Shown here in pieces: positions 14,777 to 42,841 of a DNA stretch of 64,000 nt (within the stretch, counting starts at the first letter, position 1; each line of letters opens with the position of its first letter). Below the pieces are notes generated by a model. It saw only the letters and a program-made list of their open reading frames with translations, was not told the DNA's origin and searched no databases. The position numbers and the translations under genes are program-made. Source of the DNA: a virus; IMG/VR virus record IMGVR_UViG_3300037515_000591, positions 7,403 to 71,402 of that record. The stretch is one strand, 5' to 3'.

Positions 14777-14778
14777 CT

Positions 14779-15186: not shown

Positions 15187-15200
15187 CTGGAGCCCGCCCC

Positions 15201-15404: not shown

Positions 15405-15414
15405 GGAGAAACCC

Positions 15415-16513: not shown

Positions 16514-16755
16514 ACGTCTTCGAGACCGTCTACGTCATCGGCGCCGCGATCTCCGCAGTCATCCTCGCCATCGACATCACCATCGACGAGGCCGACTGGA
16601 GCAGGCGCATGGTCTCGTTCCCGGATCCTGGCGAGCCGCTTCGGATTGAAACCGAACACGTCGTCAGCGGCATCCTGATGGGGCTTGTGACTGCGTTCGT
16701 CTGGCCGGTTGGGGTTCCGGCGTACTTCCTCGCGTTCAGGACCCGGCGTGGGTGA
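16510..16755 (+). CDS. small two-helix membrane protein
   Basis: GTGA overlap start. Hydrophobic stretches VIGAAISAVILAI and GILMGLVTAFVWPVGVPAYFLAF. Confidence 0.55.
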   Translation: MNVFETVYVIGAAISAVILAIDITIDEADWSRRMVSFPDPGEPLRIETEHVVSGILMGLVTAFVWPVGVPAYFLAFRTRRG

Positions 16756-16939
16756 CCGTCTGCGTCCGGTGCGCCTGTTCGGCCGCGACTACTACTGGCA
16801 CGCCGGGCCCGGCCATCCGCTGCAACTGCTGCCCGCCGTCCCGTGGCCCGAGCTGCCCAAGGTGCAGCCCGAGGATCTGTACTCGGAGTTGGTCCGCCTG
16901 TACGCCCGCCCACTCCCACAACCCGAGGAGATCCCTTGA
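16748..16939 (+). CDS. hypothetical protein
   Basis: I preferred this frame over the Cys/Pro-rich alternative at 16752-16946. The start is GTG 16748. Confidence 0.4.
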   Translation: MGDRLRPVRLFGRDYYWHAGPGHPLQLLPAVPWPELPKVQPEDLYSELVRLYARPLPQPEEIP

Positions 16940-17409
16940 CGGCTGACAGCCCGCGACGCGTGATCACGCTGAACTGTTTGACCTGCGGCGAGACCGGCAT
17001 CACCGTATGGGCCGCACACGCCAGCGCCTGCCCCGGCCCGTCCCACGGCGGCGGGCCAGCCGAGACCATCGAAGGCGTCCGTCACCTCGAAGCCCGCCTA
17101 TGGGAGAACAACGACGCTCGGGAGATGCCCGTCTCCGCCGTGTGCCACTCGATCGCTAACGATCTGCGGGACGTCCTCGCAGACGACGATCACCGGCCTA
17201 CCGCCCCCGACCTGACCACCGGCACCCGAGGTGAGTACAACGAGTGGGTCATCGAGACGAAGCTCGGGCGCAGGCTCGCTGTGTGTGTCGACCGCAGCCC
17301 GTATCGGGAGGACGCACGCCGGCGGTTGGAGGAGCTACGGGCCGAGCATCCGGGGATGGTGTTCCGAGTGGTCCGGGAGACGAGTACGCGTACTGAGGAG
17401 GATTGGTGA
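16936..17409 (+). CDS. hypothetical protein
   Basis: The TTG start overlaps the upstream stop. Contains LNCLTCGETG...ACPGPSHGG. Confidence 0.5.
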   Translation: MTADSPRRVITLNCLTCGETGITVWAAHASACPGPSHGGGPAETIEGVRHLEARLWENNDAREMPVSAVCHSIANDLRDVLADDDHRPTAPDLTTGTRGEYNEWVIETKLGRRLAVCVDRSPYREDARRRLEELRAEHPGMVFRVVRETSTRTEEDW

Positions 17410-18023
17410 TGCCTGACCTGCATGGCTGGCTGAGTCAACAGATCGACGCGGTGGAAGCCGTAGCGCGGGCCGCAGCCTCCGACGGAACGCCCGACTGGTA
17501 CACCAAGAACCATTTCGCTGTAGCCGACGGGGACGGCGATGCGGTCGCGTACAACGAGGGAAACCCCACCCCGGACCAGGCCCGACACATTGCCCTGCAC
17601 GACCCTGCGGGCGTGCTGCGCCGTTGTGCCGCTGACCGGAAGATTCTCGCCGAGCACCGGCCCCACGGCGGCAAGTGGGAGCCGTACGCCTGCGAGGGGT
17701 GCGGCATGGACGGCGGGGACTGCGCCGACTGGATGGTTGAGCACGTCAACGACTGCCCGACGCTGCTCGCGCTCGCGGAGGGGTACGGGCTCACCGGCGA
17801 GCAGCGCGCCGTACTGGACCGGCCCGAGCCTGAGCGGCCTGCACCGTCCGGGCCCAGCCTTCTCCCTGACGGGCTCGCCGAGGCCATGTTCGGCAACCTG
17901 TACGCCTTCGCACTCGGTGTACGGGAGGTTGAGCGGAGCCCGGAGGTGAAGGCGATGGAGATCCTGAACCCGGAGTTGAAGAAGATCCCCGGCTACCTGC
18001 CCACCACCGAGGAGCAGCAGTGA
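17409..18023 (+). CDS. DUF6221-like protein
   Basis: The segment ARHIALHDPAGVLRRCAADRKILAEH matches my memory of the DUF6221 family seen in actinophages. Confidence 0.65.
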   Translation: MPDLHGWLSQQIDAVEAVARAAASDGTPDWYTKNHFAVADGDGDAVAYNEGNPTPDQARHIALHDPAGVLRRCAADRKILAEHRPHGGKWEPYACEGCGMDGGDCADWMVEHVNDCPTLLALAEGYGLTGEQRAVLDRPEPERPAPSGPSLLPDGLAEAMFGNLYAFALGVREVERSPEVKAMEILNPELKKIPGYLPTTEEQQ

Positions 18024-18337
18024 GGCGCCTGATCAGCAACAAGACTCTGTGGCCTCTGCACGTCGCTCAGGGCCGCGCCGAGGAGATCTCCGCGTGGGTG
18101 GCTGCGAACGGCATCGAACCCGACGACGTGTCCACCAACCATGATCTGATCGTTGAGGACGTGGCAGGCGTTCTGTCGATCCGGTGCACGGTGTACCTGC
18201 GGACGCTGGACGGCTCCAAGTACGTGGATGGCGCGTTGGATGACGCGGCGGTGGCGGAACGGCGTGTGCCGCTGCTGGTGCTGCCGCCGGATTCCTGGCC
18301 GACGTGGGCGCTCGCCGACGAAAGGCCACAGCCGTGA
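18020..18337 (+). CDS. hypothetical protein
   Basis: GTGA overlap start, 105 aa. Confidence 0.55.
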   Translation: MRRLISNKTLWPLHVAQGRAEEISAWVAANGIEPDDVSTNHDLIVEDVAGVLSIRCTVYLRTLDGSKYVDGALDDAAVAERRVPLLVLPPDSWPTWALADERPQP

Positions 18338-18588
18338 GGCCACTGCAATGCGTGATCGGCCGCCACGCATGGACCGGCTGGCGTAAGCACGAGAAGGGAT
18401 GCGGCGACCACGGCTGCGACCGCTACCTACGCCGCTGTACTCGGTGCCCGAGGTGGCAGCGCAAGTTCCCAGGAGGGCGACCGCGCGAGTTCGAGTGCCG
18501 CTGCCTCGCCTTCGCCTGCTGCTCGGACGAATGCCGCCAAGGCCGATGCCCATCCATCCCAGCCGAGCTCAGAGAGGACACCCGATGA
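18334..18588 (+). CDS. Cys-rich small protein
   Basis: GTGA overlap start. Contains CGDHGCDRYLRRCTRCPRW...CRCLAFACCSDEC. Confidence 0.5.
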   Translation: MRPLQCVIGRHAWTGWRKHEKGCGDHGCDRYLRRCTRCPRWQRKFPGGRPREFECRCLAFACCSDECRQGRCPSIPAELREDTR

Positions 18589-18905
18589 GCCAACCACTCG
18601 ACGAACAGCAGATGCGAGATGCCTGGGACACGGCTGTACAGGACTGCCTGACCGGGCACGAGAACTGCTCGTACGGCGGCATGACCCCACAGACCGGCTA
18701 CTGGCTCCAAGCCGAGGGCTGCCAACTCAACCACGGTGAGAGGTGCGTGTGGTGCGGCGGCGAGGCGGAGACGGGGTTCTCCAACTGGGCCGACGACGGG
18801 TTTTCGATCTACCGGGTTCCTGCGTGTGAGGGGTGCGCGCAGCAGTGGGTGCGGTTCGATGTTCGGTGGGTGCGGAGCATCGCGGACGAGGAGCCCACCC
18901 CGTGA
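18585..18905 (+). CDS. hypothetical protein
   Basis: ATGA overlap start. Contains the motif LTGHENC and CVWCGG...CEGC. Confidence 0.55.
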   Translation: MSQPLDEQQMRDAWDTAVQDCLTGHENCSYGGMTPQTGYWLQAEGCQLNHGERCVWCGGEAETGFSNWADDGFSIYRVPACEGCAQQWVRFDVRWVRSIADEEPTP

Positions 18906-19336
18906 GCAACTACGCGTACGCCAGCGTCCCAGGCAACGACTCTGCGATCGTCGGCCCCGAAACCGTCAACGGCACCGGACAGGTCTACCTCCACGCCGAC
19001 GACCTCTGCTTCCTCAGCAACGAGGAAGCCCGCGAACTCGGGCGCGCGCTGATCGAGGCCGCCGACTACGCGAAGGCCGTGCAGAACGAGAAGGAGAACT
19101 GGCCGGGCGGCGGACCGCCCAAGTCTGTACTCGACGTCGCGTGGACCGATCCGCAGTGGCGTTCCGCTGGCCCGGACGGCGACCCCGACACCGCGTGCAG
19201 CGCCTCTCACCGCCCAGACCCCCGCAGCACCAGCCCCCGGAGCGTTGCCCGTTGCACGCGGGGCTGCGGCCACTGCGGGGCGCACGCCGGGGCCGACTTC
19301 GACGGAAGGTCGTACCAGTGGGAGGACACGCGATGA
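18902..19336 (+). CDS. hypothetical protein
   Basis: GTGA overlap start, 144 aa. Confidence 0.5.
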   Translation: MSNYAYASVPGNDSAIVGPETVNGTGQVYLHADDLCFLSNEEARELGRALIEAADYAKAVQNEKENWPGGGPPKSVLDVAWTDPQWRSAGPDGDPDTACSASHRPDPRSTSPRSVARCTRGCGHCGAHAGADFDGRSYQWEDTR

Positions 19337-19452
19337 CCGTCACGCTGCGACTCGTCGTCGAGACGTGCTGCGCCTGCCCCAACCAGTGGGACGCCTGGAC
19401 CGTCGACGGCCAATACCTTGCATGTCAACTATGTTCGCGAATAATGTTGTGA
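19333..19452 (+). pseudogene. 39-codon ORF, possibly a truncated gene
   Basis: MTVTLRLVVETCCACPNQWDAWTVDGQYL then runs into an AT-rich segment and stops. Confidence 0.35.
19418..19446 (+). promoter_or_regulatory. near-consensus sigma70-type promoter TTGCAT-17 nt-ATAATG
   Basis: Read directly: ttgcat at 19418-19423, a 17 nt spacer, and ataatg at 19441-19446. The GTG of the next gene is at 19465. Confidence 0.5.
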
Positions 19453-19464
19453 CACAATGGAACT

Positions 19465-19662
19465 GTGACCGACTACAGCCAGCGACTCAAGAGGGCCCGC
19501 GCCGCCTATGACAGAGCGCGCTCCGCCTTGTTTGCAGAGATCAAGGAAGCGCTCGAAGCCGAAGACGGACCAACCGTCTCCCAGATCGCACGCGACGCCG
19601 ATTTCACCCGCGAGTACATCGCCAAGATTCGCGATGGCCAGGGACCGAAGGAGACGCGATGA
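19465..19662 (+). CDS. small DNA-binding-like protein
   Basis: 65 aa. TVSQIARDADFTREYIAKIRDG is HTH-like. The stop overlaps the HNH gene start. Confidence 0.55.
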   Translation: MTDYSQRLKRARAAYDRARSALFAEIKEALEAEDGPTVSQIARDADFTREYIAKIRDGQGPKETR

Positions 19663-20222
19663 GCGGACGTGTCTGCGCAGTAGACGCATGCGAAAGGCCG
19701 CGCCATCGCCGCGACTGGTGCGTTATGCACCACAGCCGCTGGAAGCGGACGGGGAACCCGCTTGGCGCGCGAACCAGCCCCGACGTGCGGTTCTGGGCGA
19801 AGGTCGACAAGCGCGGTCCGATGTCGGAGCACCGCCCGGACCTCGGTGCATGCTGGGTGTGGACTGGCGGCAAGGATCGCCTCGGGTATGGGCACTTTTG
19901 GCTGGACCGCAGCCACGTGCTCGCCCATCGGTTCGCATACGAACTGCTGGTGGGCCCAATCGCGGGGAGTCTAGAGATGGACCACTTGTGCCGGGTTAGG
20001 CACTGCGTTAACCCGCACCACCTCGAACAGGTAACTCACCGGGTGAACACTCTGCGCGGCACGTGCCCTTCAGCGCAGGCGGCACGGGTGACCCACTGCC
20101 CACAAGGGCACGCGTACAACGAGGAGAACACCCGCATCTATCAGGGGCGACGGTACTGCCGTGAGTGCAGCCGTGAAGCGAGCCGCCGCTACAAGGCCTC
20201 TAAGCGGGCGGAGCGGGAGTGA
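19659..20222 (+). CDS. HNH endonuclease
   Basis: Motif LAHRFAYELLVGPI...LEMDHLCRVRHCVNPHHLEQVTHRVN, followed by a zinc-ribbon tail. Confidence 0.8.
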   Translation: MSGRVCAVDACERPRHRRDWCVMHHSRWKRTGNPLGARTSPDVRFWAKVDKRGPMSEHRPDLGACWVWTGGKDRLGYGHFWLDRSHVLAHRFAYELLVGPIAGSLEMDHLCRVRHCVNPHHLEQVTHRVNTLRGTCPSAQAARVTHCPQGHAYNEENTRIYQGRRYCRECSREASRRYKASKRAERE

Positions 20223-20286
20223 TCACGCTGACGGAGTTCCTACGCCGGACGGGCCTGCGACTCGCACCAGACGCGGTGGTGAGCTG

Positions 20287-20625
20287 ATGAGTACCGAGTG
20301 GATGACGCCCGAGCAGATCCGGCAACACCGCGCCGCCGAGATCATGGAAGGCCCGCTCGGCCAAGCCATCTACGACGTCATCATCTGGACACGGAAGCAA
20401 TGGCCACCCATGCGGTCCGATGACGAACTGTGGCTCAACCCCACCGACCACGGCGCCACCGTGCTGATCGGCGGCCGGGTGCTCGGCTACGAAGTGTGCG
20501 CCTCCGAACAGGTGCCGCCCGGCAAGGCGCTGATCTACTGCAAGGCCCTCAGCGCGTACGTGGGCGACGGGCAGATGCCGGACGGCCGGTACATGCTGGT
20601 GCGACTCCCGGAGATCACGCTGTGA
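20287..20625 (+). CDS. hypothetical protein
   Basis: Internal ATG at 20287, 112 aa. Confidence 0.55.
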   Translation: MSTEWMTPEQIRQHRAAEIMEGPLGQAIYDVIIWTRKQWPPMRSDDELWLNPTDHGATVLIGGRVLGYEVCASEQVPPGKALIYCKALSAYVGDGQMPDGRYMLVRLPEITL

Positions 20626-20924
20626 GCGACCGCATTCCACTCGACCCCGACCAGGCCATCGCCTTCGACAAGGCGACAGAGAACCGCCGCGAATACATCC
20701 GAGCGGAAAGACTCGACCAGCTGGCCGACGGTGGCGAGTCCGTGCACTACCCGGGCTGCCCTGAATGCGGCGTGCCGGCGAAACACGTCGTGTGGTCCAC
20801 GTACGACCAGGGTCCGGGCGGTGTGCTGGAGATCGATTTGGGTACGTGCGGGCATCGGTTCACCGTGAGCCCGGTACCAGCACGCTTCGACCCAGACGGC
20901 TTCTGGTGGCACTCGGAAGACTGA
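20622..20924 (+). CDS. hypothetical zinc-ribbon protein
   Basis: GTGA overlap start. Contains YPGCPECG...GTCGH. Confidence 0.55.
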   Translation: MSDRIPLDPDQAIAFDKATENRREYIRAERLDQLADGGESVHYPGCPECGVPAKHVVWSTYDQGPGGVLEIDLGTCGHRFTVSPVPARFDPDGFWWHSED

Positions 20925-20933
20925 CGACCGCGC

Positions 20934-22988
20934 TCACTCCCAGCGGGCCACGAACGTGCCCCTGCACCGCACGCCGCCCTCGCACCGCAGATAGCCGCCC
21001 GCACCATACGCAGCCCGCACCGCGTCCAAGTCGTCGAACTCCGTGCCGTCGATCTCAGAGCACGGGTCACACACCCGGCTGTCGTTCTTCTCGCTCGCGA
21101 AATACCGGGCAGTCGGCGCAGCGGCCAACGTCGCCACCCGGCCCGCGTTCTGCGCCCGATGCAACGCACCCCCAAGCTGGTCACGCCGGAACCAATTCTT
21201 CAACCCCTTCAGGAACCGGGTGACCTTGCCCGCCACACCCTCACCGTCCGCACCCGGCGTCAGCAGACGCAACGCCTCACGCCCCGCAGACCCGGCAAGA
21301 TCAGCAGCCAGCAGAGCAGCCGTCGCCGCGGCGATCTCCACCAACTCCGACCCGAACGCGTTCGTCAACGACCGGCTCAAACGCGGCGGCTTCACCTTCA
21401 CACCCTGCTCGGCAGCCTCCGCCACCATCTGCGCGGCAGCAGCCTTCGCCATGTCGGCGAGCGCACCCCGCAGCACCTTCGCCGCCACATCCGAGTCCAC
21501 ACTCAGATCAGCGAGCGCCTCAGTATCACCCGCATCCACCGCGGTCTCGATCTGCGCGGCGAGCGCCTCAACCTGCGCCTCCGCGACCGGCTCCCACGCC
21601 TCCAACAGCCCAGCCAGCGCCTCCTCGAACTGGACCCGCACCCGCTCCAACGCATCGTCATCAGCCTGCGCACGCACCCGACCGTGCTCCAACACCCGGT
21701 TGTACGACGGCTGCCCGGCAGGCAACGCGAACGGCACATGGTGATGCAAGTCCAGACGGGCCGCCGGCGCGGGCACAACCGGAGCCTGCTGAGGCGCCCG
21801 AGCAGGGGCCGGCGCCCGGTACCCCAGATCCGGCAAGCCCAAATACTCCGACGCCAACCGAGGATCCGCGCCCCCATCCACCAGCGTCTTCCACGCCACC
21901 GTCTTCGACTCCGCCTCCTTCACCTCCAACTCCCGGTCCGTCGGAGTCGGATCCACAAAGTCGAACTCCAGGGCACGCGCCGCATCCTTGCCGTACAGCG
22001 GTAGCAACTGGTGGTTCAGCGCGCCGCGGATCGCCCGCAGATCCGGGACGACCAGCCAGCGGGAGAACATGACATCGGCGGCTTCCATGTTGGCGCGGTT
22101 CGCGTCATCAACTGTGCCGAGCATCGGCTTGGGGAAGCCGAGCCCTTCGCGGATGACCTCGCGGGACGCCGCGTTCGACTCGACGAACTGCATGTCGCGC
22201 TGCGTGTACTTGCGGTCCTTCCACACCCCGTGCTCCAGGAACGCGACACGGTGGGCGTTGGCAACACCCTTGTGCTGCTCGTCCCAGCGGGCCTGCAACT
22301 GGTCCCACTCGGGGTCGGAGAGGACGGAGGGGAGTTCGATGATCCCGCCCGGCTCCGCGCTGTTCATGAAGAAGTTCCGCTGCCATTCGGCCGCGAACTT
22401 GTTCGAGTCGATCTCGGCGAGCAGCGGCTGAATCGGCGAGATCCCCCGGTACGGATCCCTCGGGTGCGGCGTACGAATGAAGATCACGTCTTCCAGACGC
22501 AACGCCACCTCCTCACCCCCCGGCCCCGTGTACATGTACCCCGACAGGAACTTCGTGGGATGCGGCACCGGCTGGATACGGTCCGGGCGCACATTCCACA
22601 TCTCCAGCGGCATCGTCGACCGGGCGCTATTCCGGGCGATCACCCACCACGTCTCCCCCGTCAAACCCTTGTGCTGCTGCCCCGCTTCCACGAAAATCTC
22701 GCGGGTGAAGAACGGGTTCGGCTTATTCCACAGGTCGAGCGCGGGATGAACCGCAACTTCCTGCCGGTCCTCCTTCAGCCCAGACTTGGCCTTGCGGTAC
22801 AGATGCCACTCCACCCCGGCCACAGCCTTCGACCAGCGGCTGACGATCGCATGGACGGTGCCCACCGTCTCCATCGCCCGCATCTGCGCCTCAGCACCGC
22901 TGGGTGCCCGCCACGGAATCGACAGCCCGCCACGGGCCGACACGTACGGCACCGGCGTCTTATTCCTCAGGGCACGTAGAGACCTCAC
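20934..22988 (-). CDS. portal protein fused to a MuF-like minor head domain
   Basis: The N-terminal two thirds are portal-like. The C-terminus ...FASEKNDSRVCDPCSEIDG...YLRCEGGVRCRGTF is MuF-like. The start is GTG 22988 with RBS GGAGAAGGGGA. Confidence 0.8.
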   Translation of the reverse strand: MRSLRALRNKTPVPYVSARGGLSIPWRAPSGAEAQMRAMETVGTVHAIVSRWSKAVAGVEWHLYRKAKSGLKEDRQEVAVHPALDLWNKPNPFFTREIFVEAGQQHKGLTGETWWVIARNSARSTMPLEMWNVRPDRIQPVPHPTKFLSGYMYTGPGGEEVALRLEDVIFIRTPHPRDPYRGISPIQPLLAEIDSNKFAAEWQRNFFMNSAEPGGIIELPSVLSDPEWDQLQARWDEQHKGVANAHRVAFLEHGVWKDRKYTQRDMQFVESNAASREVIREGLGFPKPMLGTVDDANRANMEAADVMFSRWLVVPDLRAIRGALNHQLLPLYGKDAARALEFDFVDPTPTDRELEVKEAESKTVAWKTLVDGGADPRLASEYLGLPDLGYRAPAPARAPQQAPVVPAPAARLDLHHHVPFALPAGQPSYNRVLEHGRVRAQADDDALERVRVQFEEALAGLLEAWEPVAEAQVEALAAQIETAVDAGDTEALADLSVDSDVAAKVLRGALADMAKAAAAQMVAEAAEQGVKVKPPRLSRSLTNAFGSELVEIAAATAALLAADLAGSAGREALRLLTPGADGEGVAGKVTRFLKGLKNWFRRDQLGGALHRAQNAGRVATLAAAPTARYFASEKNDSRVCDPCSEIDGTEFDDLDAVRAAYGAGGYLRCEGGVRCRGTFVARWE

Positions 22989-23360: not shown

Positions 23361-23996
23361 GTGAATCCACCAGTTCAGGTTGTGTACAAGGGCGTTACGT
23401 ACAAGCGGAATCCCAACAGCGATGACTGGCCCAAGCGCGTGTATTACCAGGCGCCTCGCGGCAGCGGACGCGGATACCTGCACCGCGACGTCTTCACCGA
23501 CGCCAATGGTCCGATCCCGGACGGCATGCACGTCCATCACCGAGACCACGACCCGTTCAACAACGACCCGTCGAATCTGACGCTCCTCACCCCGAAGCAG
23601 CACCGCCAAGAGCACAGCAAGAAGTTCGACGAAGCACGCATGAAGATCTTCAGGGAGACCACTCTCGCAGCTGCGGCGAAATGGCATGGAAGCGAAGAAG
23701 GCCGCGCTTGGCATCGGGAGCACGGCCGCAAGACCTGGGAGGGGCGCGAGACGAGCACCTTCACATGCCCTGAGTGTGGGGAGGAACACCAGGGGCACTT
23801 CCTGGCGCGCACCGGCCCTGAACGGTACTGCTCAGGGCGTTGCAGGCAGCGAGCGGAATGGCGAACGAAGAAGTACTGGGAAGATGCCACCTGCCCCATG
23901 TGCTCGGCAGCGTTCAAGCGACAGCGGGGACGTAGTGAGACTTGCTCGCGCAGTTGCGGGGCAAAGCTCAATTGGCAGCGGCGTGCGTCCTCATAG
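23361..23996 (+). CDS. HNH endonuclease (antisense to the late operon)
   Basis: Motif MHVHHRDHDPFNNDPSNLTLLTPKQHRQEH plus C-terminal CxxC pairs. It converges on the large terminase with a 6 nt overlap. Confidence 0.8.
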   Translation: MNPPVQVVYKGVTYKRNPNSDDWPKRVYYQAPRGSGRGYLHRDVFTDANGPIPDGMHVHHRDHDPFNNDPSNLTLLTPKQHRQEHSKKFDEARMKIFRETTLAAAAKWHGSEEGRAWHREHGRKTWEGRETSTFTCPECGEEHQGHFLARTGPERYCSGRCRQRAEWRTKKYWEDATCPMCSAAFKRQRGRSETCSRSCGAKLNWQRRASS

Positions 23997-25436
23997 CCAA
24001 CGGACCCTGGTCCGGGGACCGACAAAATAGGCCAAAAGCAACGCATCTGCGTTATCCGGGCTTCGGCCGATTCGCTTCTTCGTCTCATCCTTCGGCTCCA
24101 CCACCGTCCGCCCCGCGCTGTCCGTCGTGTACTTCGGCGCCGTCAACTGCGACACCAACCGCTCCCGATCCTTCTCCTCCAGCCCCGACATGTCCCACGC
24201 CAGATCCTCCGACAACTGCCGGCCCACCTCCCACCACAACTGCGACCGCAGATTCTTGAACCGGCCCGGATTCGACGACGCCTCCGACACGTTCACCCCC
24301 ACCACCTGTGCCCGGTGCAAGCTCTGCGACTGCTTCTCCCGCAGTGAGCCGACCACGCCCCACCCGATCCCGATCGCATCCACCTTCACGATCGCGGCCT
24401 GCGACTGGTTGATCGCCTCCACGATCCGGGCCACAGACCTCACCGGATCCCGCTCACGGAACCGCCACTCCCGGCCCACCACCACACCACGCCGCTCACG
24501 AATCACCGTCTCGTCACCGCCAGCACCCATATCGATCCCGAGCTCCACCGGCGTGAGCTGACCTGGCGGCCACGGGATATCGCGCGGCCGGCAGCAGGCA
24601 CGGACTTTCGACAGGCGCACCACCCCGTCCTCCGCGTCCGACGGGAAATCCCCGAGGACCTTGCTGATGTAGGTGGGCGACTCCTCCCCGTACTCCAGCC
24701 GCATCTCCTCGACGTAAGCGTGGGAGACGAGCATCTCCCGCAGCTCGTCCGGGACTTCCTCGCCCGTGAAGTTGGGGGTGTCGAACGCCGAGATCTTGAT
24801 GGTGTTCCAGCGTCCACTCCCGCAGACGCGAGCGAACTCAGTCCCCGGGTCGTCCGGATTGCCGACAGCGAGAATGCGGCAGTGCTCGCCCGTGGCGATC
24901 GCGCGCGCAGCGGTCCAGAACTGCTTGTTCACGCCGCACGCTTCATCCAAGATCACAAGCACGTACTTCGCGTGGATGCCCTGGAAGGCATGCGGGTTGT
25001 AGTCGGACGGTTTGCGGCCGAAAGCGATCAGCCGCTTCCCCAGCTTCCAGTCCGTCTCATTGATCCGCCCCAGAAACGGACGGCCCCGCGCCTCGGCCTT
25101 CGTGAACGCCCCGTTGATCTCAGACCACAGGATCGCCTTCACCTGATCCCCGGTCGGCGCAGTCGTCACCACCCGCGCCTCACCCGGCGGATGAATGTCC
25201 AGCCACCACGCCACCAACTGCGCAGCCAAGAAGCTCTTGCCGACACCGTGGCAGGACTGCACGGCCGTCTGCCGGTGGTCGCGCACCGACTCCGCAATCT
25301 GGATCTGCTTCGACCACAGATGCGTGCCCAGCTTCTCCCGCGCCCACAAGCCCGGGTCGTCGACGTACTGCTCCGCGACAGCAGCCTCATCCGCCTGATC
25401 CTCCAGGCGACCTGCGGCAAGCGTGATCGCGTCCAC
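23991..25436 (-). CDS. terminase large subunit
   Basis: Walker A-like CHGVGKS, VLVILDEA, and a C-terminal nuclease-like region. 481 aa. Confidence 0.9.
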   Translation of the reverse strand: MDAITLAAGRLEDQADEAAVAEQYVDDPGLWAREKLGTHLWSKQIQIAESVRDHRQTAVQSCHGVGKSFLAAQLVAWWLDIHPPGEARVVTTAPTGDQVKAILWSEINGAFTKAEARGRPFLGRINETDWKLGKRLIAFGRKPSDYNPHAFQGIHAKYVLVILDEACGVNKQFWTAARAIATGEHCRILAVGNPDDPGTEFARVCGSGRWNTIKISAFDTPNFTGEEVPDELREMLVSHAYVEEMRLEYGEESPTYISKVLGDFPSDAEDGVVRLSKVRACCRPRDIPWPPGQLTPVELGIDMGAGGDETVIRERRGVVVGREWRFRERDPVRSVARIVEAINQSQAAIVKVDAIGIGWGVVGSLREKQSQSLHRAQVVGVNVSEASSNPGRFKNLRSQLWWEVGRQLSEDLAWDMSGLEEKDRERLVSQLTAPKYTTDSAGRTVVEPKDETKKRIGRSPDNADALLLAYFVGPRTRVRWL

Positions 25437-29871: not shown

Positions 29872-29957
29872 GATGGGGCTCCTGTCTCGCGTGTCGGGAT
29901 GGGACCGGGGCGGCCGGTTAGCTGGCAGGCAGGCGGCCGCCCCGGGGTCTTGTGGGC

Positions 29958-30206
29958 TCAGCGGCCCCAGCAGTTCGCCAGCAGCAGCGCCAGGAAAAAC
30001 AGCAGCGCCCAGAACGAACCCGACGGCAGACACCCGTCGCCGCGGGCTTCCGCATGCACGTGACGGACCTCGTCGCCACCGGCCGGCGCGAGCCCTCCGT
30101 GCGCGTCCCGGCGATGGGCGGCGCCTTCGTCCATGGCGTCCGCTTCGCGGGCGCGGCGCTCCGGGGAGACCGCGTCACAGGCCCGACAGAAGTACTCGTA
30201 CGGCAT
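29958..30206 (-). CDS. small protein with C-terminal hydrophobic helix
   Basis: MPYEYFCRACD...SFWALLFFLALLLANCWG. Confidence 0.4.
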   Translation of the reverse strand: MPYEYFCRACDAVSPERRAREADAMDEGAAHRRDAHGGLAPAGGDEVRHVHAEARGDGCLPSGSFWALLFFLALLLANCWGR

Positions 30207-30236: not shown

Positions 30237-31307
30237 CTACGATGACTTGACTAGACGGCCGTTGATCACGTCGTACCTGTGCACCCCTGGGCCGTTCCCC
30301 TTCGGGGTGCGTACGCCGGGCCGTACGTTGATGTCGGCCTTGTCGAGAAGGTCTCGCACGGCCTTGGTGTCCCCGAGACCGAAGCGTTCACGAACCGTAG
30401 TGAGCAGTACTCCCCTGTCGTCGCCTACTAGCCGGGCAACGGCCGCTCTCACCTGGTCCGAGCTTGCGGTAGCAGCATCGAACGAATCGTCTCCCGTATC
30501 GGCGAAGACCTTGCGAGAGTGCCCAGGCCCAGGGCACGGGCTGATGAAGCCGCGTTGTTCCAAGGCGTCCAGCAGCTTCGCGGCCCTGGAAAAGCCGATC
30601 TTTAGACGTTGCTGGAGCATGGTCGCCGAGGCGATGCCGGTAGAGGTGACCAACTCTGCTGCCTGCGCCAAGAGGTCGTCTGTCTGCCTCTTGCGCAGAT
30701 CGAAAGCCTCGGCCTCGCTCGGGTTGTGACTTGCTACGAATTGCTTGATGTCTCGCGTGTACTTGAACCACTCGCTCCGTCGGACTCGCGCGTCCTTGAA
30801 GCGGTCGTGCAGCGCGGCTTCGAGTTCCCTGCCACCAGCCAGGGTCAGCGCGACGTTCTCCTTCGGCTGGGCCAGAGACGACAGGCGTCCGCCCAAGTTC
30901 GTCGAATAGCCGATCTTGACCCGGTCTCCGTTCGCGATGAAGTAGACGACCGGCTCGTGAGGTCCGCTGAATACGGGCTGAACGGCTTTACCGAAGACTG
31001 GCTGCTGGACTGTCCCTGATGCGGCAGCCGCCAGCATCTCCGGGACGATGGAGATGGCCACCTGCATCCGGTGCCGCTGGCACAGCGCTACGGGAACGGT
31101 GGACGTCACGATGTCGGTGCACGGCTGCCCGCTGTCGGCCGCAAGGCAGCGCGCGCTAAGGTCGGTCATGTCGATCTCCTTTGCAGATCGGCCATGCCCC
31201 GGGACCGTTGGCGCGGTCGCCGGGGTCAGTCTTTGGTTGTGTCTCAAGTATCCCATGTGCACCACCTGTTGAGAGCCATCCGGCATGCCTAGAAGCGCGT
31301 AGATCAT
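30237..31307 (-). CDS. T5orf172 (GIY-YIG-like) domain protein with FtsK-gamma winged helix
   Basis: VVYFIANGDRVKIGYSTNLGGRLSSL...ELEAALHDRF...RSEWF is T5orf172-like. ELVTSTGIASATMLQQRLKIGFSRAAKLLDALEQRGFISP matches the FtsK gamma consensus. The start ATG 31307 overlaps the upstream stop. Confidence 0.7.
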   Translation of the reverse strand: MIYALLGMPDGSQQVVHMGYLRHNQRLTPATAPTVPGHGRSAKEIDMTDLSARCLAADSGQPCTDIVTSTVPVALCQRHRMQVAISIVPEMLAAAASGTVQQPVFGKAVQPVFSGPHEPVVYFIANGDRVKIGYSTNLGGRLSSLAQPKENVALTLAGGRELEAALHDRFKDARVRRSEWFKYTRDIKQFVASHNPSEAEAFDLRKRQTDDLLAQAAELVTSTGIASATMLQQRLKIGFSRAAKLLDALEQRGFISPCPGPGHSRKVFADTGDDSFDAATASSDQVRAAVARLVGDDRGVLLTTVRERFGLGDTKAVRDLLDKADINVRPGVRTPKGNGPGVHRYDVINGRLVKSS

Positions 31308-32047
31308 GTGGTCTTCACCTCCTCTCCAACCCCGGAGAGCGGCGGAGAATCGGCGCTCTGACCTGCATCTCCACCGGAATCCACAGGCGACTCTCCATCG
31401 GAGGGGAGGAGGGCCTCGACGTCGCCTCGGCGGACCCCTGAGCGGCCCGCGACTCGGCCCAGGCGGAGGCTGCGATGGACGGGCACATCGAAGGCCCGGA
31501 GTAGGGCCCTCAACTCGGCGTCCGTACGCCCCTCGTGCCCAGGCAGTTCGCGCATCGCCGGGTACAGCTCGCGGAGGTGGATTCCGGGCCGCTTGCCGAT
31601 GGTGTCGAGGAGCCATTGGGCGAGCGCGTGTCGGGGGTCTGCGGGGGCGTCCTCGGCGGCCTCCGGCTGGGTCTCGTCGGGGGTACGTGCGGTGCGCCGC
31701 TCGGTCCATGCGGTTGCCCGGTCGAGGTACTCCTTCGGGATGAACAGGAGCACCGCGGCCAGCCAGGCGAGGATGATGCCGGCCGCGGTCCAGCCGCCGT
31801 AGAAGCCGACCGCCCACACGGCGACGACGTGGACGCCCCACGCCCAGCCGGTGCCGAAGCGGGCGGCGATCCACGAGCTCGGCCCGCACACACCCAGGAG
31901 CAGCGCGCCGAGGCTGCCGGGCGGCTCGGCCGGCGCCTCATCGACGACGGGCTCGGTCTCTTCGTCCAGCTCATCGACCACCTCGTCGAGGTCCTCCTCG
32001 ACGGGCGCCGGCTCGGGCTGGTGTTTCCGCAGGCTGAAGTACGTCAT
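31304..32047 (-). CDS. membrane protein, acidic N-terminus
   Basis: ATG 32047. Hydrophobic helices GALLLGVCGPSSWIAARF, VHVVAVWAVGFYGGW and AAGIILAWLAAVLLFI. Confidence 0.6.
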   Translation of the reverse strand: MTYFSLRKHQPEPAPVEEDLDEVVDELDEETEPVVDEAPAEPPGSLGALLLGVCGPSSWIAARFGTGWAWGVHVVAVWAVGFYGGWTAAGIILAWLAAVLLFIPKEYLDRATAWTERRTARTPDETQPEAAEDAPADPRHALAQWLLDTIGKRPGIHLRELYPAMRELPGHEGRTDAELRALLRAFDVPVHRSLRLGRVAGRSGVRRGDVEALLPSDGESPVDSGGDAGQSADSPPLSGVGEEVKTT

Positions 32048-32448
32048 GCCAGGTTCGCCCCCAGGTCGGCGATCGCGTCGGAGATGTACGCCCACGTGCC
32101 GCCTGCACCTGCGGCGATGTACCAGAAGAAGATCCCCAGGACGCCGATCTGCTTCGTCGTCAGCCGCTTGAACAGAATGAAGATCGCCATGGACAGGGCG
32201 AGCGCGGGCATCGTCACGCCGGGGATCACATCGTTGACGGTCGCGATGAGGCTGCCCACGAAGTCCGGGACGAACTTGAAGAAGCCTCCGGCCGCCTTAT
32301 AGGCGGACCCGGCGAGCATCGACAGAATCAGGGTGGGCCACCAGCCGAGCGGCTTCAACCGGCCGCCGCCGGGGATCCCGACGAGCAAGAGCACGGTGAG
32401 GACGACGGCCAGGCCGACGGTGCCGAGGTTGCCGAACACGCTGTTCAC
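32044..32448 (-). CDS. polytopic membrane protein
   Basis: 134 aa with about four hydrophobic helices. Confidence 0.65.
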   Translation of the reverse strand: MNSVFGNLGTVGLAVVLTVLLLVGIPGGGRLKPLGWWPTLILSMLAGSAYKAAGGFFKFVPDFVGSLIATVNDVIPGVTMPALALSMAIFILFKRLTTKQIGVLGIFFWYIAAGAGGTWAYISDAIADLGANLA

Positions 32449-32457
32449 GACGGGTTC

Positions 32458-33168
32458 CTAAGGCTGGTAGCCGGTGCCGTACAGGGCGATACCGGCGATG
32501 ACGGATGAGACGGGGACGGCAGCAGCCCAGGCGACGGGCCACGCCCACGTGCGGGAGCGCCGGTACAGGGCGCAGGCGCAGAACCCGAGGCCGTACAGGG
32601 CGAATGCGGAGGGGCTGGCCCAGTGGCCGTCGGCGTACCAGGCGGCGGTGTCGGTGCCCCAGTCGACCCAGCCGAGCGGCCAGCCTGCTGCGGCGGCGGT
32701 GGCGTGGTAGATGAGCCAGCGGATGCGGTTGGGGATGCGGTCGTAGGCGTCGAGGAGGGATTGGCGGGGCGGGTGGGGCTGGTCGTCGCGGTATGTGGGG
32801 CGGGCGGTGCGGCGCTTGGGCGGCCGTGGGGCGGGGGCCCGGGTCGGGCCGGGGTCCGCGGGTTCTTCTACTGGCTCCGGTTCGTCCTCGGCGGGCTCCT
32901 CGTCGGCCTCGCCGGCGTCGTCGGCGGTGAGGTCGGTGGGCTTGCGGCTCCACCAGTTCGGGAGCCGTGGCGCAGCCCGGCGCGTGGGCGGCCTGGGCTG
33001 CTCGTCGCCGTACAGGTCGTCCCACCACGCGTCTTCCGCTGCGGGCCGGTATCCGTCCGACGGCGGGCCGGGCGGCATGGGTGGTGGCGTGGCGTCCGGG
33101 CCGTCGATGAGACGGCGGAGACTGCCGCGGATACGGAGCTCGTCAGCGCCGGGCTTCGTCTCGCCCAT
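32458..33168 (-). CDS. Pro-rich N-terminus plus polytopic membrane C-terminus
   Basis: ATG 33168. The N-terminus MGETKPGADELRIRGSLRRLIDGPDATPPPMPPGPPSDGYRP is paralogous to the 33308-33556 protein. Confidence 0.6.
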   Translation of the reverse strand: MGETKPGADELRIRGSLRRLIDGPDATPPPMPPGPPSDGYRPAAEDAWWDDLYGDEQPRPPTRRAAPRLPNWWSRKPTDLTADDAGEADEEPAEDEPEPVEEPADPGPTRAPAPRPPKRRTARPTYRDDQPHPPRQSLLDAYDRIPNRIRWLIYHATAAAAGWPLGWVDWGTDTAAWYADGHWASPSAFALYGLGFCACALYRRSRTWAWPVAWAAAVPVSSVIAGIALYGTGYQP

Positions 33169-33308
33169 CACAGCCCCCACCACATCTGAACGGCGATCAC
33201 GACGGCCATGGCCAGGGAGACGCGGGAGAGGAAACGGGCGTCGGAGGCAGGCGCGCGCCATCCGGCGGCAGCGACGGCCAGGAACCCGCCGAGGAGGAGG
33301 TAGCCCAT
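33168..33308 (-). CDS. 46 aa two-helix membrane peptide (not in ORF track)
   Basis: My translation is MGYLLLGGFLAVAAAGWRAPASDARFLSRVSLAMAVVIAVQMWWGL. It has ATGA overlaps at both ends. Confidence 0.4.
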   Translation of the reverse strand: MGYLLLGGFLAVAAAGWRAPASDARFLSRVSLAMAVVIAVQMWWGL

Positions 33309-33556
33309 CACGCGCCCCTCAGGTAGCGGTTGACGGTCTCCGGCTTGGCGACTGATTCCGGGACGTGCGCGGGGGGCGGGGGTGTGGCGTTGCTGTCGAG
33401 GATGTCGTCGAGCCAGTCCCGCGGGCGCGCGGGCCGGTAGCCGTCAGGTGGCGGCCCAGGCGGCATGGGTGGGGGTTCGACTGTGGGGCCGTCGACGAGC
33501 TTGCGGAGACGGTCCTGGATACGGCGCTCGTCGGCGTCCGGCTTCGCCCCGCTCAT
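33308..33556 (-). CDS. Pro-rich small protein (paralog of the 32458-33168 N-terminus)
   Basis: MSGAKPDADERRIQDRLRKLVDGPTVEPPPMPPGPPPDGYRP... Confidence 0.55.
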   Translation of the reverse strand: MSGAKPDADERRIQDRLRKLVDGPTVEPPPMPPGPPPDGYRPARPRDWLDDILDSNATPPPPAHVPESVAKPETVNRYLRGA

Positions 33557-34572
33557 GACCGCACCTGCCGGGCTTCGCGCAGGTACCGCTTCGCGGTCGC
33601 GGGACTCACGTCCAGGAGCTCAGCGACCTGAGCTGAGGTGAGCCCCGAGTCCTGAGCCACGAGCTCAGCCACCCGCGCCACGCTCTGAGCCCGCTGGGCC
33701 GACTGTGCGGTGAGGTGTGCGGAGAACCCGAAGGCGTGGGCCTCGGGCTCGGCAGCCTGGGCCTGAGGCTCAGGTGCTGCGGCCTGCGACGACGTGAGAA
33801 CGATGGGCGCGCCGGACGGGTGAGGCTCAACCATCTGAGCCTCGGGCTCAACCGCCTGAGCCTCGGGCTCGGTGGGCTCATCGCGCCGCGCCTCGGGCCC
33901 TGGCTGAGCTACCTCGATGGCCTGAGCCGCTACCTCATCGAACGCGCGAAGAGACTCGGCAGTTGAGCCGGCCGTCAGGGCGAGTGGCGTACGGCGCTGG
34001 ATCTCGGCACGCTTCTCGATCCGCTCCAGGCTGATCTGGAAGTCGGCGTCATCGCGGGCAAGGACGGTGCGCGCTTCAGCCTTGATACGGGCGATCTCCG
34101 CGTCCGCGGCCCGGGTGAGCTGCTCCAGGCCGGCCTCGTGGAGCTGCGCGGTGTACGAGCTGCTGCGCATGACGTCGTGGATCTCGGCCTGCTGCTCCGG
34201 GGTGAGGGCGGCCGGGTCGCGCATCGCGGCGAGCGCGAACACCCACACGATCTTCCCGACGCCCACGACGAACGGCCCAGCGATCGCCTGCCCGCGGGAT
34301 GCTTCGGCTCCGTGGATGACGAGGAGGACGGCGACACCGACGGCGATGGCCCAGCCGGCCAGTGGGGCGGGCCATCGGCGGCCGCCGATGGTGACGCCCT
34401 GGTACTCGGCCCACAGGACGGTGACCCAGCCGATGTCTCCGGCGAGGGCGACGGACAGGCCGAACGGTCCGCTGTGCATGAGGTCGGTGATGGCGTAGGC
34501 GGACCAGATGAGGGAGAGGGCTGCGAGGGCGGCGGCGCCGTAGGTGATGGCGGGCCGACGGGTGGTCTTCAT
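33553..34572 (-). CDS. DUF2637-like membrane protein with C-terminal HTH (SpdB-like architecture)
   Basis: ATG 34572. It has four N-terminal hydrophobic helices, a coiled middle, and a C-terminal LTSAQVAELLDVSPATAKRYLREA. Confidence 0.65.
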   Translation of the reverse strand: MKTTRRPAITYGAAALAALSLIWSAYAITDLMHSGPFGLSVALAGDIGWVTVLWAEYQGVTIGGRRWPAPLAGWAIAVGVAVLLVIHGAEASRGQAIAGPFVVGVGKIVWVFALAAMRDPAALTPEQQAEIHDVMRSSSYTAQLHEAGLEQLTRAADAEIARIKAEARTVLARDDADFQISLERIEKRAEIQRRTPLALTAGSTAESLRAFDEVAAQAIEVAQPGPEARRDEPTEPEAQAVEPEAQMVEPHPSGAPIVLTSSQAAAPEPQAQAAEPEAHAFGFSAHLTAQSAQRAQSVARVAELVAQDSGLTSAQVAELLDVSPATAKRYLREARQVRS

Positions 34573-41217: not shown

Positions 41218-41987
41218 GACGCCTCGGTCTTCCGGAGGCCGTCTTGGAACTCGTCCAGTTGGGCGCGCTCCTGAGGCGTCAGCCGGGCGAGACGGTCCCG
41301 GGCGGCAGCGCGGAGCCGTTCCTCTTCGGCGGCGGCCTGTTCGGCGGTCTGCTCCGGTGCGCCCTGTGCGGCCCTGAGGCGGGCGCTGTGCGGCTTCGGG
41401 CGGGGTTTCCCCAGCGGCTGCTTCGCGGAGCCGCCTGGCGTCTTGCATGGGCGTCCTATGGCGGCGTGGCAGGCGGGGCACTCGATGCCGAGCGGCCCGG
41501 TGCGGCGGACGGTGTCGACGAGCTCCGTCTTCACCGCGCCCTCGTCGGAGTCCGGGACCGTCCGGATGTCTTCCCAGCCGCGGGCCTCCAGCCCGTCTGT
41601 GAGCTGTTTCGACGGACCGCCGGTGAGAGCCAGCCGGCTGGAGGGTGGTGCGATGCGGCCGGAGGCGATGGCCTGGGTCTGGCCGCGGAGTCGGGCGAGG
41701 TACTCCTGCCATGTCTCGTCGCCGACGGGCTCGTACTGGAAGTTCACCAGCCGCGCCGAACGCAGCTTCGTACGGAGGGTGCGGATGTGGTGCGGGAGGA
41801 TCCACAGCCGCTCTCCCGGGTTTTGCGGCGGGGTCGTGTAGTACACGGCGACCGCGGCCTTCGCATCAGAGTCGAGCGGCACGTCGTGGAGGGCGGAGGC
41901 CCAGGCAACCGCGGCGGCGACGGAGGGCTGCCGGTTGTCGAAGGAGGTGCAGTGGCCGAGGAGTTCGGCGGCTTCGTCGGGGTTCAT
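41214..41987 (-). CDS. hypothetical protein with the same zinc-finger motif
   Basis: ATG 41987. Contains IECPACHAAIGRPCKTPGGSAKQPLGKPRPKPHSARL. Confidence 0.6.
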   Translation of the reverse strand: MNPDEAAELLGHCTSFDNRQPSVAAAVAWASALHDVPLDSDAKAAVAVYYTTPPQNPGERLWILPHHIRTLRTKLRSARLVNFQYEPVGDETWQEYLARLRGQTQAIASGRIAPPSSRLALTGGPSKQLTDGLEARGWEDIRTVPDSDEGAVKTELVDTVRRTGPLGIECPACHAAIGRPCKTPGGSAKQPLGKPRPKPHSARLRAAQGAPEQTAEQAAAEEERLRAAARDRLARLTPQERAQLDEFQDGLRKTEAS

Positions 41988-42841
41988 GCGGAGTCTCCTT
42001 GCTCGCGGAGTTGGGCGGCGATGGCGGCCCAGCCGGCGACCTTGGCGTCGGTGCCGGTGAGGGTGGTTTGGCCCCCGCCGGAGAGCGGGACGAGGAAGGC
42101 GCCTTGGGTGGGCCGGGTGGCCCGGTCGGCGGCTTTTTTGGCGTCGTCGCGGATCCACTTCTGCCAGGCGTCGGGCCAGCTTTTGCGGCGGGTGCCGGTG
42201 GATCGGTAGTGGCTGACGAACTGGGCGGTGGAGTGCTCGATGTCGAGACCGGGGTATGTGGCTGCGACCCAGCGACGCATCGAGTCGGTTAGCTGGAAGC
42301 CGTCGATCTCGATCGGAGTGGGCGCGGGAGGGCCGTCAGGCCGGGCGGTCGGAGCCGTCGGCCGAGGCTGGTTCGAAGAGGCCTCAGCCCCCTCTTTCTG
42401 CGTTCCTTCTGGTGTATCTGCGTTAACTGCGTTATGGGGTGCGGATTCTGCACCCCTACCGGTACGGATTCCGTACCCCCCCGGTACGGAATCTGTACCC
42501 CTGGGGGTGCCGTTTCTGGACCGGTACGGATTCCGTACCGGTACAGAATCCGTACCCCCCTTACGGGTGTGGCCCTTGGCGCCGGGGAGGCGGTAGCGGG
42601 TCTCTCCGTGCGGTCCCTTCTGGCCGAGCACGATCTCCAGTTCGCCGGATTCGAGGAGGGCGTCGACCGCCTTGATCACGGCTGTCCGTGACGCCTGTGA
42701 ACGACGGATCAGGAAGGTGGTCCCGGCGTACGCCGAGACGTCCGGCCCGCTCGCCTTGTCGGCGATGGCGAGCAGCACGAGTCGCGCCGTGTTCTTGGAA
42801 GCGGAGTGCTCCCATACCCAGTCCTGTGCGTCGAGGCTCAA
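41984..42841 (-). CDS. putative replication initiator (winged-helix N-terminus) containing the origin iterons
   Basis: The N-terminus ARLVLLAIADKA...TTFLIRRSQASRTAVIKAVDALLESGELE is wHTH-like. An iteron array lies in the middle of the gene. Confidence 0.65.
   Translation of the reverse strand: MSLDAQDWVWEHSASKNTARLVLLAIADKASGPDVSAYAGTTFLIRRSQASRTAVIKAVDALLESGELEIVLGQKGPHGETRYRLPGAKGHTRKGGTDSVPVRNPYRSRNGTPRGTDSVPGGYGIRTGRGAESAPHNAVNADTPEGTQKEGAEASSNQPRPTAPTARPDGPPAPTPIEIDGFQLTDSMRRWVAATYPGLDIEHSTAQFVSHYRSTGTRRKSWPDAWQKWIRDDAKKAADRATRPTQGAFLVPLSGGGQTTLTGTDAKVAGWAAIAAQLREQGDSA
42438..42556. repeat. six 17 bp near-palindromic iterons GGTAC(G/A)GA(A/T)TC(C/T)GTACC
   Basis: Copies at 42438, 42461, 42483, 42506, 42523 and 42540. 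The last three abut each other. A lower-GC CTGCGTT-repeat stretch lies just upstream in plus coordinates (42390-42437). Confidence 0.75.

Follow-up and report, generated by a model that had tools for sequence, protein, structure and literature searches.

The closest described relatives of the gene considered here are the T5orf172 homing endonucleases of Vibrio phage ICP1, whose DNA-binding modules are arranged as "beads on a string" and undergo domain swapping (PMC10448857). Odn (Gp88) of the same phage joins a RepA_N domain to a T5orf172 nuclease and cuts the origin of a satellite (PMC10448857, PMC8263062). FtsK-gamma domains that lack a translocase motor have also been described in phages, both as stand-alone genes and as a fusion to a small terminase (PMC8190038). 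The present gene encodes a T5orf172 nuclease core followed by an FtsK-gamma winged helix, and it lies on the minus strand of a 64,000-nucleotide (nt) stretch of IMG/VR record IMGVR_UViG_3300037515_000591 (record positions 7,403 to 71,402), the whole of which is called the window below. An earlier note on this DNA did not recognize the architecture as that of a described system. Literature searches found no paper describing this exact pairing, but T5orf172 with a swappable module and motor-less gamma are both documented, and the protein is not a categorically new system; it is kin to Odn and the other ICP1 T5orf172 endonucleases and to the motor-less gamma small terminases. Our preferred explanation, at a probability of roughly 0.55, is that a temperate Streptomyces-type phage makes a modular, site-directed endonuclease from this gene, which is carried as an optional cassette resembling those of homing endonucleases, not as a core function of the phage, and is preceded by a leader that occludes the ribosome-binding site (RBS).

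Domain architecture and family

The coding sequence and its four parts are as follows (aa, amino acids; pLDDT, predicted local distance difference test).

30237..31169, minus strand: complete 310-aa protein, CCCH / T5orf172 / FtsK-gamma / winged helix; stop codon at 30237-30239
31020..31169, minus strand: N-terminal CCCH (C-x8-C-x13-C-x2-H) beta-hairpin region, then a long helix, aa 1-50
30720..30971, minus strand: T5orf172/MUG113 (GIY-YIG clan) nuclease core, aa 67-150, above the Pfam cut-off
30504..30686, minus strand: FtsK-gamma winged helix, aa 162-222, with Pfam, PDB sequence, and PDB structure matches
30255..30473, minus strand: second winged helix ("C-dom"), aa 233-305, topology H-S-H-H-S-S, from AlphaFold2 at pLDDT 85-92

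This domain architecture is real and intact, and the protein is 99% identical to a Joint Genome Institute (JGI) protein, P0002. The true start is almost certainly the ATG at 31169 (MTDLSARC...), which gives 310 aa, because AAGGAG stands 6 nt upstream, a codon model trained on the window chooses it, P0002 and most homologues begin at the same Met, and the DNA upstream is a leader conserved at the nucleotide level. The earlier note had started the protein at 31307, so that its first 46 residues are non-coding leader read in frame. The codon model and the leader conservation together rule out both 31307 and the GTG at 31889, which opens a long open reading frame (ORF), as coding starts. The Cys-containing N-terminal region that had been noticed from the letters is real: the C-x8-C-x13-C-x2-H motif is kept across relatives, its Cys and His residues are conserved in a 132-sequence alignment, and the AlphaFold2 N-terminal model has a pLDDT of 74 to 97 over the region. 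It is probably a zinc ribbon, serving as a module for DNA binding or oligomerization. AlphaFold2 modeled the full-length protein at pLDDT 83.5 and residues 1 to 150, taken separately, at 93.2. The fourth domain, the C-dom, was absent from the earlier note and matches only phrog_34550, a family of unknown function.

Pfam hmmscan assigned the nuclease core to MUG113 (39.2 bits; cut-off, 22.3) and T5orf172 (29.0 bits; cut-off, 20), and an exhaustive HMMER family search returned 7062 matches at E ≤ 1e-3, with 300 at E ≤ 1e-10. In the 132-sequence alignment Y76, G81, K85-I86-G87, R95, G112, E117, and E133-W134-F135 are invariant, and H71, R83, H121, and R128 nearly so. Their counterparts in GIY-YIG enzymes are the Tyr of GIY, the motif YIG, the catalytic Arg, and the Glu that binds metal; Y76, R95, and E133 are the putative catalytic Tyr, Arg, and metal-binding Glu here. 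We infer that E133 is the counterpart of E180 in Odn, a conserved Glu recognized from an alignment and needed for cutting, since the E180A protein is inactive (PMC8263062). A Foldseek search of the 150-aa model against the PDB gave UvrC GIY-YIG as the only family with a probability above 0.5, and the top five matches were all UvrC; among viral predicted structures the best matches of the full-length model were phage MUG113/T5orf172/GIY-YIG proteins, at probability 1.0. A search of PDB sequences with the T5orf172 family profile gave no true match. The retention of these core residues suggests that the protein is probably an active T5orf172 endonuclease. Neither of the outcomes that the earlier note named as refuting its reading, missing profile support or loss of the catalytic residues, was seen.

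The gamma assignment is borne out by sequence and by structure. Pfam FtsK_gamma (PF09397) matched at 64.3 bits against a cut-off of 30.6 (residues 208-268 in the numbering that starts at 31307), and phmmer aligned the segment end to end with the Pseudomonas aeruginosa and Escherichia coli FtsK-gamma structures (2J5O, 2VE8/9, 2J5P) at E 4e-7, the identity to proteobacterial FtsK-gamma being 36 to 40%. The AlphaFold2 model of the domain superposes on 2VE8/2VE9 with template modeling (TM) scores of 0.80 to 0.88 and a root mean square deviation (rmsd) of ∼1.2 A, and Foldseek comparison with 2VE8/2VE9/2J5O/2J5P gave TM scores of 0.73 to 0.88 and rmsd values of 0.9 to 2.2 A over 58 to 64 residues. 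As the earlier note had proposed, the protein has no translocase motor: Pfam and NCBIfam scans of it found no FtsK/SpoIIIE motor domain, and the match to the NCBIfam FtsK model is confined to the last 70 residues of that model. Nor was an FtsK_SpoIIIE-type P-loop motor found in the subset of window ORFs that was scanned.

The domain probably binds DNA. Three gamma domains of an FtsK hexamer read one FtsK orienting polar sequence (KOPS). In E. coli FtsK the reading positions are N1296, R1300, and E1303, and FtsK mutated at them no longer recognizes KOPS. For R1300 and E1303 the numbering agrees with PMC2965235. The aligned positions are S/K/D in the window protein and A/R/D, V/R/D, T/Q/D, G/K/A, and R/D/D in other T5orf172-gamma proteins, so that specificity for KOPS or for the TraB recognition sequence (TRS) cannot be assumed. 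A role as KOPS/TRS reader, put forward in the earlier note, is thus weakened by S/K/D in place of N/R/E. In a search of low power confined to the 64-kb window, no 8-mers or 7-mers were over-represented or strand skewed (best z, 2.7; skews track gene orientation). No tandem or direct 8-bp repeats resembling clt cluster near the gene, and no 8-bp repeat cluster occurs in the 64-kb window; the TRS-like word GACCCCGG of the leader is found 7 times in the window against 8.5 expected.

Gamma domains linked to T5orf172 share a wing signature, P-C-x-G-x-G-x-S/T-R, which is absent from the E. coli and P. aeruginosa domains. The shared signature suggests one capture of gamma followed by reshuffling, and it tempers the idea of repeated independent captures from FtsK.

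How often these modules are combined was examined in a census of 157 cluster representatives.

81/157: CCCH-T5orf172, with unassigned tails
27/157: T5orf172 only
23/157: small proteins with two, three, or four gamma domains in tandem
11/157: CCCH-T5orf172-Cdom
3/157: Cdom-CCCH-T5orf172
3/157: T5orf172-gamma
2/157: CCCH-T5orf172-gamma-Cdom (the window type)
2/157: CCCH-T5orf172-gamma
2/157: T5orf172-Cdom
1/157: CCCH-T5orf172-Cdom-gamma
1/157: Cdom-CCCH-T5orf172-gamma
1/157: C-dom alone

The CCCH region is present in 101 of the 157, and fusion of T5orf172 to gamma is rare but recurrent, with about 8 of 157 representatives in five domain orders. Pfam confirmed the gamma domain in four fusions and did not do so in P0031 (CCCH-T5orf172-gamma), where it is truncated. 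Relatives without gamma (P0003-P0006) carry the C-dom directly after the T5orf172 core, and the tail of P0026 is the helix-turn-helix (HTH) of a 339-aa membrane protein encoded in the window (70% identity, E 7e-22). The CCCH-T5orf172 core can thus be followed by a C-dom, gamma, gamma plus C-dom, C-dom plus gamma, an HTH as in the membrane protein, or nothing. From this census and the P0026 tail, the nuclease core is constant and the DNA-binding tails are interchangeable, which matches the module pattern of the ICP1 T5orf172 proteins. In the 23 representatives with tandem gamma domains (e.g., P0023, P0069, P0079, P0092, P0096, P0128, P0132, and P0146), most of them small, no T5orf172 core was detected; these proteins recall the three gamma domains that read one KOPS.

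The window protein shares with the ICP1 enzymes and Odn a T5orf172 (GIY-YIG subfamily) catalytic domain, zinc-finger or other DNA-binding modules exchanged by recombination, a position near packaging or other essential genes, and, as seen in its Gordonia orthologues, variable presence; as in Odn, a DNA-binding head taken from a protein of another system would redirect the nuclease. It differs from them in its Actinomycetota host clade and in having a CCCH region rather than the CapR-type CxxC...CxC, and from Odn in carrying FtsK-gamma and a second winged helix rather than RepA_N. The gamma domains of FtsK, SpoIIIE, and Streptomyces TraB belong to the same Pfam family and fold, whereas here there is no alpha/beta motor, no membrane anchor, and one gamma per chain, with the KOPS-reading residues replaced and a distinct, Cys-containing wing signature. 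The FtsK_gamma-Terminase_2 small terminase of Bacillus phages Sam46 and Sam112 and the stand-alone gamma genes of phages likewise have gamma recognizing DNA apart from a translocase (PMC8190038), but the partner domain here is a nuclease instead of a small terminase, and the hosts belong to another phylum.

A structured leader upstream of phage nuclease genes

Hairpins that sequester the RBS are a known means of control of T4 homing endonucleases (PMC2988022). The window gene is preceded by an element of this kind.

31166..31285, minus strand: structured leader, with a possible extended -10 element TGGGATACT, hairpin 1, and hairpin 2 CAUGGCCGAUCUGCAAAGGAGAUCGACAUG

The leader is ∼115 nt long and lies within the 138 nt between the ATG at 31169 and 31307. 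Hairpin 2 encloses the Shine-Dalgarno sequence and the AUG, with CAUG...GAUCU pairing with AGAUC...CAUG. The 103 nt that run from upstream into the start fold as RNA into two hairpins, at -36.9 kcal/mol (z, -3.55). Nucleotide identity across loci is 88 to 94% at 31170-31264 and 60 to 72% in flanking coding DNA, and this difference indicates that the nucleic acid, rather than a protein, is under constraint. Within the window the leader palindrome occurs only once.

A covariance model (R1) found the leader in 16 loci (the window, L001, L002, L003, L007-L009, L011-L016, and L019-L021), with each copy ending at a start codon. In the R1 alignment 95.3% of cells are paired, compared with 83.8% in shuffles and ∼45% in slid controls, and compensatory changes occur in 15 of 25 pairs against 6.2 ± 1.4 in shuffles, none of 500 shuffles reaching as high; the alignment was fitted to the covariance model, which favors structure, and the contrast is still large. 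Rfam, searched at gathering and E-value thresholds, holds no family for the leader. Fifteen of the 16 loci place it before T5orf172, HNH, HNH_3-like, or EndoVII-like genes in Streptomyces, Gordonia, and Arthrobacter phages and in phage MinS1. Exact-pattern scans found a 37-nt leader core upstream of the gene for an EndoVII-type nuclease with triple zinc fingers, and upstream of two HNH_3-like nucleases that were recognized by weak pairwise support and motif reading. BLASTN against GenBank phages gave further copies, and individual phages carry the leader as follows.

Gordonia phage Asapag: before the terminal HNH gene
Phage MinS1: before an HNH gene
Gordonia phage Spooky: at an HNH gene (gene 31, L021 about 1562)
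Arthrobacter phage MargaretKali: before an unannotated HNH_3-like ORF of 161 aa at the right end (L020 1572-2057)
Gordonia phage Archis: before the T5orf172 gene (gene 81, L016 2597-3097)
Rhodococcus phage REQ2: before a non-nuclease gene, Orf37

The position of the leader corrects annotations in Archis, MargaretKali, and Spooky. It implies that the true start of the Archis "G-I-Y Y-I-G endonuclease" lies 129 nt upstream of the annotated one, with the CCCH region then included, and that the Spooky HNH gene probably starts ∼78 nt downstream of its annotated start. The T4-type genes (I-TevI/II/III, segB, mobE; PMC2988022) are similar in having a stable hairpin that covers both the Shine-Dalgarno sequence and the start codon, and in being free-standing nuclease genes that close a long polycistronic unit. 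They differ in that here one homologous leader is shared by different nuclease superfamilies in several actinobacterial phage genera.

Genome setting of the gene

The Gordonia orthologue is an optional gene, and the block that contains it can be replaced. Over 2099 nt Archis and ZiggyZoo share 99.86% identity, then differ in a block, and beyond it are 95.8% identical; where Archis has a block of 1001 bp (gene 80, leader, and T5orf172), ZiggyZoo has 530 unrelated bp. Hitter also lacks the Archis block, and the leader is absent from both ZiggyZoo and Hitter. The right-end region of Archis occurs in 120 Gordonia phages, and tblastn with the window protein found the gene in only 7 Gordonia phage records. 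An optional gene in a replaceable block suits a nuclease of the homing or accessory type and speaks against an essential role in packaging.

The window itself (G+C ∼68%) consists mostly of a temperate prophage of siphovirus type from a Streptomyces-like host, and its relatives among reference genomes are Streptomyces only. Pfam identified these landmark genes.

11064-12563: capsid
12560-14254: ClpP-type protease
20934-22952: portal
23991-25436: large terminase
48950-49636: WhiB
49911-50462: RusA
52210-52962: RNase_T-type exonuclease
58775-60316: serine integrase

The T5orf172-gamma gene is the penultimate clear gene of a long minus-strand early arm, at the end of that arm beside the packaging genes. 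This position fits the terminase-proximal bias reported for T5orf172 endonucleases (PMC10448857). On its 3' side come an 82-aa gene, a GC-rich hairpin, a block of plus-strand genes, and then the packaging genes; the nearest neighbors are listed here.

29905..29946, minus strand: GC-rich hairpin CCGGGGCGGCCG ... CGGCCGCCCCGG that follows the 82-aa gene and was recognized in the sequence by reading
29958..30206, minus strand: 82-aa protein (N-terminal CxxC, hydrophobic C-terminal tail), directly downstream of the T5orf172 gene
31304..32047, minus strand: 247-aa membrane protein upstream of the T5orf172-gamma gene, a conserved upstream neighbor in L007-L009
33553..34572, minus strand: 339-aa multi-pass membrane protein with a C-terminal HTH, SpdB_N/DUF2637-like

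The 82-aa ORF matches phrog_32136 and holds the same position in L008 and L009, with 67 to 74% identity. The hairpin stands at the junction of the minus-strand operon with the plus-strand block and is terminator-like, though without a T-run; a simple terminator scan missed it.

The 247-aa and 339-aa genes bound a minus-strand run of membrane-protein genes without Pfam matches (31304-34572; 247, 134, 241, 82, and 339 aa). Within it the genes at 32458-33183 and 33308-33556 share a near-identical Pro-rich N-terminal segment (…LR+L+DGP…PPPMPPGPP.DGYRPA…) and look like paralogues or a partial duplication. In L001 and L002 the upstream gene ends in a C-dom homologue with 49 to 62% identity to aa 226-301 of the T5orf172-gamma protein, and the gene of L002 is the counterpart of the window 247-aa gene. 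BLASTP of the C-dom against the window 247-aa protein was not significant, and the likeness within the window is one of motif reading only. The 339-aa protein has 50 to 66% identical genes in L001 and L002, the L002 copy having a weak precomputed match to PF27080 SpdB_N, and its homologues adjoin or overlap a gene annotated as "GIY-YIG nuclease family protein" on Streptomyces plasmids of 85 to 240 kb. One family member, P0094, is itself a fusion of DUF2637 and T5orf172; BLASTP of P0094 against the SpdB-like 339-aa protein was not significant, and no pairwise resemblance is claimed. Membrane-protein genes are kept in the Streptomyces loci; the Gordonia orthologues have no Spd-like neighbors.

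Relatives of the window phage itself were also sought. Megablast of 20-44 kb against GenBank phages gave no match, an IMG/VR scan guided by the protein found no relative, and no close genome of the window's own lineage lacking the T5orf172-gamma gene was found in either source.

Other features of the window were seen in passing. A 6.4-kb plus-strand block of ∼15 small genes (14504-20924) separates the portal gene from the protease and capsid genes; in the related prophage L002 these adjoin. The portal has 672 aa against 492 in L002 and the protease 564 against 361. The protease gene contains a 135-bp tandem duplication at 12837-13099 (1.9 copies, 76% match). An HNH_3 endonuclease gene lies between the portal and large terminase genes on the plus strand (23382-23996), opposite to the T5orf172-gamma gene; it has no copy of the leader and looks like a separate free-standing homing endonuclease. 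Iteron-like repeats at 42438-42556 consist of a 22-nt unit GGTACGGATTCTGTACCCCTACC present 2.9 times and then a 17-nt unit ACCGGTACAGAATCCGT, which contains its inverse, present 2.2 times. The array lies inside a weakly coding ORF (41984-42841) and could be a replication origin or an operator array.

Proposed function and competing explanations

In the preferred explanation, a modular site-directed endonuclease, the T5orf172 core of the GIY-YIG superfamily would provide catalysis. A string of modules, namely, the CCCH zinc ribbon, the captured FtsK-gamma winged helix, and the second winged helix, would target DNA and place the nuclease beside a specific site that it would cut or nick. Since hairpin 2 buries the RBS and the AUG, translation probably waits until the hairpin is opened by a particular transcript or condition, as for the T4 homing endonucleases.

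Several observations weigh against this explanation. Throughout the family the second motif is K-I-G, not Y-I-G, with Lys in place of Tyr, and the likeness of the core to solved GIY-YIG structures is modest (Foldseek E 0.05 to 0.09; TM 0.43). T5orf172 domains can be domesticated as pure DNA binders, as in CapR (PMC10448857). The search of the 64-kb window gave no target site, and one copy of the leader, that of REQ2 Orf37, precedes a gene that does not encode a nuclease. The presence/absence polymorphism concerns distant Gordonia orthologues only and not the relatives of the window phage, while the conserved membrane-gene neighborhood in Streptomyces suggests a fixed cellular role instead of selfish mobility.

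The recurrent linkage of T5orf172 with SpdB_N/DUF2637-like proteins, seen in prophages and plasmids of Streptomyces, deserves attention. A bold reading, and an unlikely one, would make the family, with its captured FtsK/TraB head and Spd-like proteins, a membrane-associated system that recognizes and cuts DNA, whether entering or already resident, that bears short motifs (e.g., clt repeats of conjugative plasmids or host polar motifs), a Streptomyces counterpart of the "specificity theft" of Odn. Independently of this, the leader would be a dedicated, portable translational switch for toxic nuclease genes across actinobacterial phages.

Quite unlikely, too, is that the gene is an Odn-style weapon between mobile elements, one that cuts DNA carrying FtsK/TraB-type motifs (the clt of conjugative plasmids and of actinomycete integrative and conjugative elements, or host polar motifs), maybe within a membrane exclusion complex with Spd-like proteins. 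Odn sets the precedent, as a phage T5orf172 nuclease that copied the RepA DNA-binding domain of its rival (PMC8263062), and TraB, whose partners are Spd membrane proteins, uses its C-terminal domain to recognize clt repeats of 8 bp (PMC4447253). The membrane association is motivated by the links of T5orf172 to SpdB_N/DUF2637-like proteins through neighborhood, fusion, and domain exchange, but the Gordonia orthologues lack such neighbors. PADLOC-DB 2.0 gave no defense-system match (best, PDC-S57 at E 0.0014 and 16 bits), and the neighboring genes matched nothing in it. Furthermore, the window shows neither enrichment nor clustering of a candidate motif, most of the family lacks a gamma domain, and the wing signature shared by the T5orf172-associated gamma domains indicates that these are not recent copies of a particular translocase.

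Marginally less probable still is a domesticated DNA-binding regulator, in which a core that no longer cuts would leave a repressor or architectural factor acting through the winged helices, as CapR does in PLE, an element akin to phage-inducible chromosomal islands (PMC10448857). Two winged helices and a zinc ribbon would suit such a protein, JGI names the near-identical P0002 a MarR-family regulator, and T5orf172 was first named as a DNA-binding domain (UniProt names). However, the putative catalytic positions are invariant in 132 diverse relatives, which is unexpected once catalysis has been lost, and the leader palindrome occurs in the window only at the gene's own leader and so would be at most an autoregulatory site.

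We regard a packaging endonuclease as improbable. HNH proteins encoded beside the terminase genes of HK97-like phages are partners of terminase. By analogy, the window protein might help terminase to cut concatemers at cos or pac, with gamma as the site reader. The gene stands at the end of the early arm adjoining the packaging module, in Gordonia and Arthrobacter phages the orthologue occupies the far right end of the genome, and the leader is common to terminal HNH genes; a small terminase of Bacillus phages Sam46 and Sam112 contains gamma, which has been proposed to read the site (PMC8190038). Close relatives of Archis dispense with the gene, however, and this lowers the weight of an essential packaging role; Archis has the T5orf172 gene as well as a terminal HNH gene, and gamma is missing from most of the family.

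Very improbable, finally, is a recombination or branch-resolving (Holliday-junction-resolvase-like) nuclease, although Iyer, Aravind, and colleagues proposed a recombination role for T5orf172 (PMC7824862), or a gamma domain that activates host XerD as a protein-protein module in the way FtsK-gamma does through helix-3 residues R1300/E1303/E1306 (PMC2965235; PDB 5DCF), given that the phage already encodes RusA (49911-50462) and Archis a RuvC-like resolvase, that the phage integrates by a serine integrase and not by Xer, and that R1300 and E1303 are substituted (K and D).

If the modular endonuclease that we favor is active, FtsK-gamma would join the DNA-binding heads that phage GIY-YIG-type nucleases can recruit, and the protein would offer a compact natural scaffold, with a zinc ribbon, a nuclease, and two winged helices, in which to study how site choice evolves by module exchange. 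The leader may outweigh the gamma finding, as one homologous, covarying element burying the RBS and AUG before nuclease genes from more than one superfamily, in phages from at least four genera of actinobacteria. It corrects several start-codon annotations, and with it the control of free-standing endonuclease genes, studied mainly in T4-like phages, becomes testable in actinobacteriophages.

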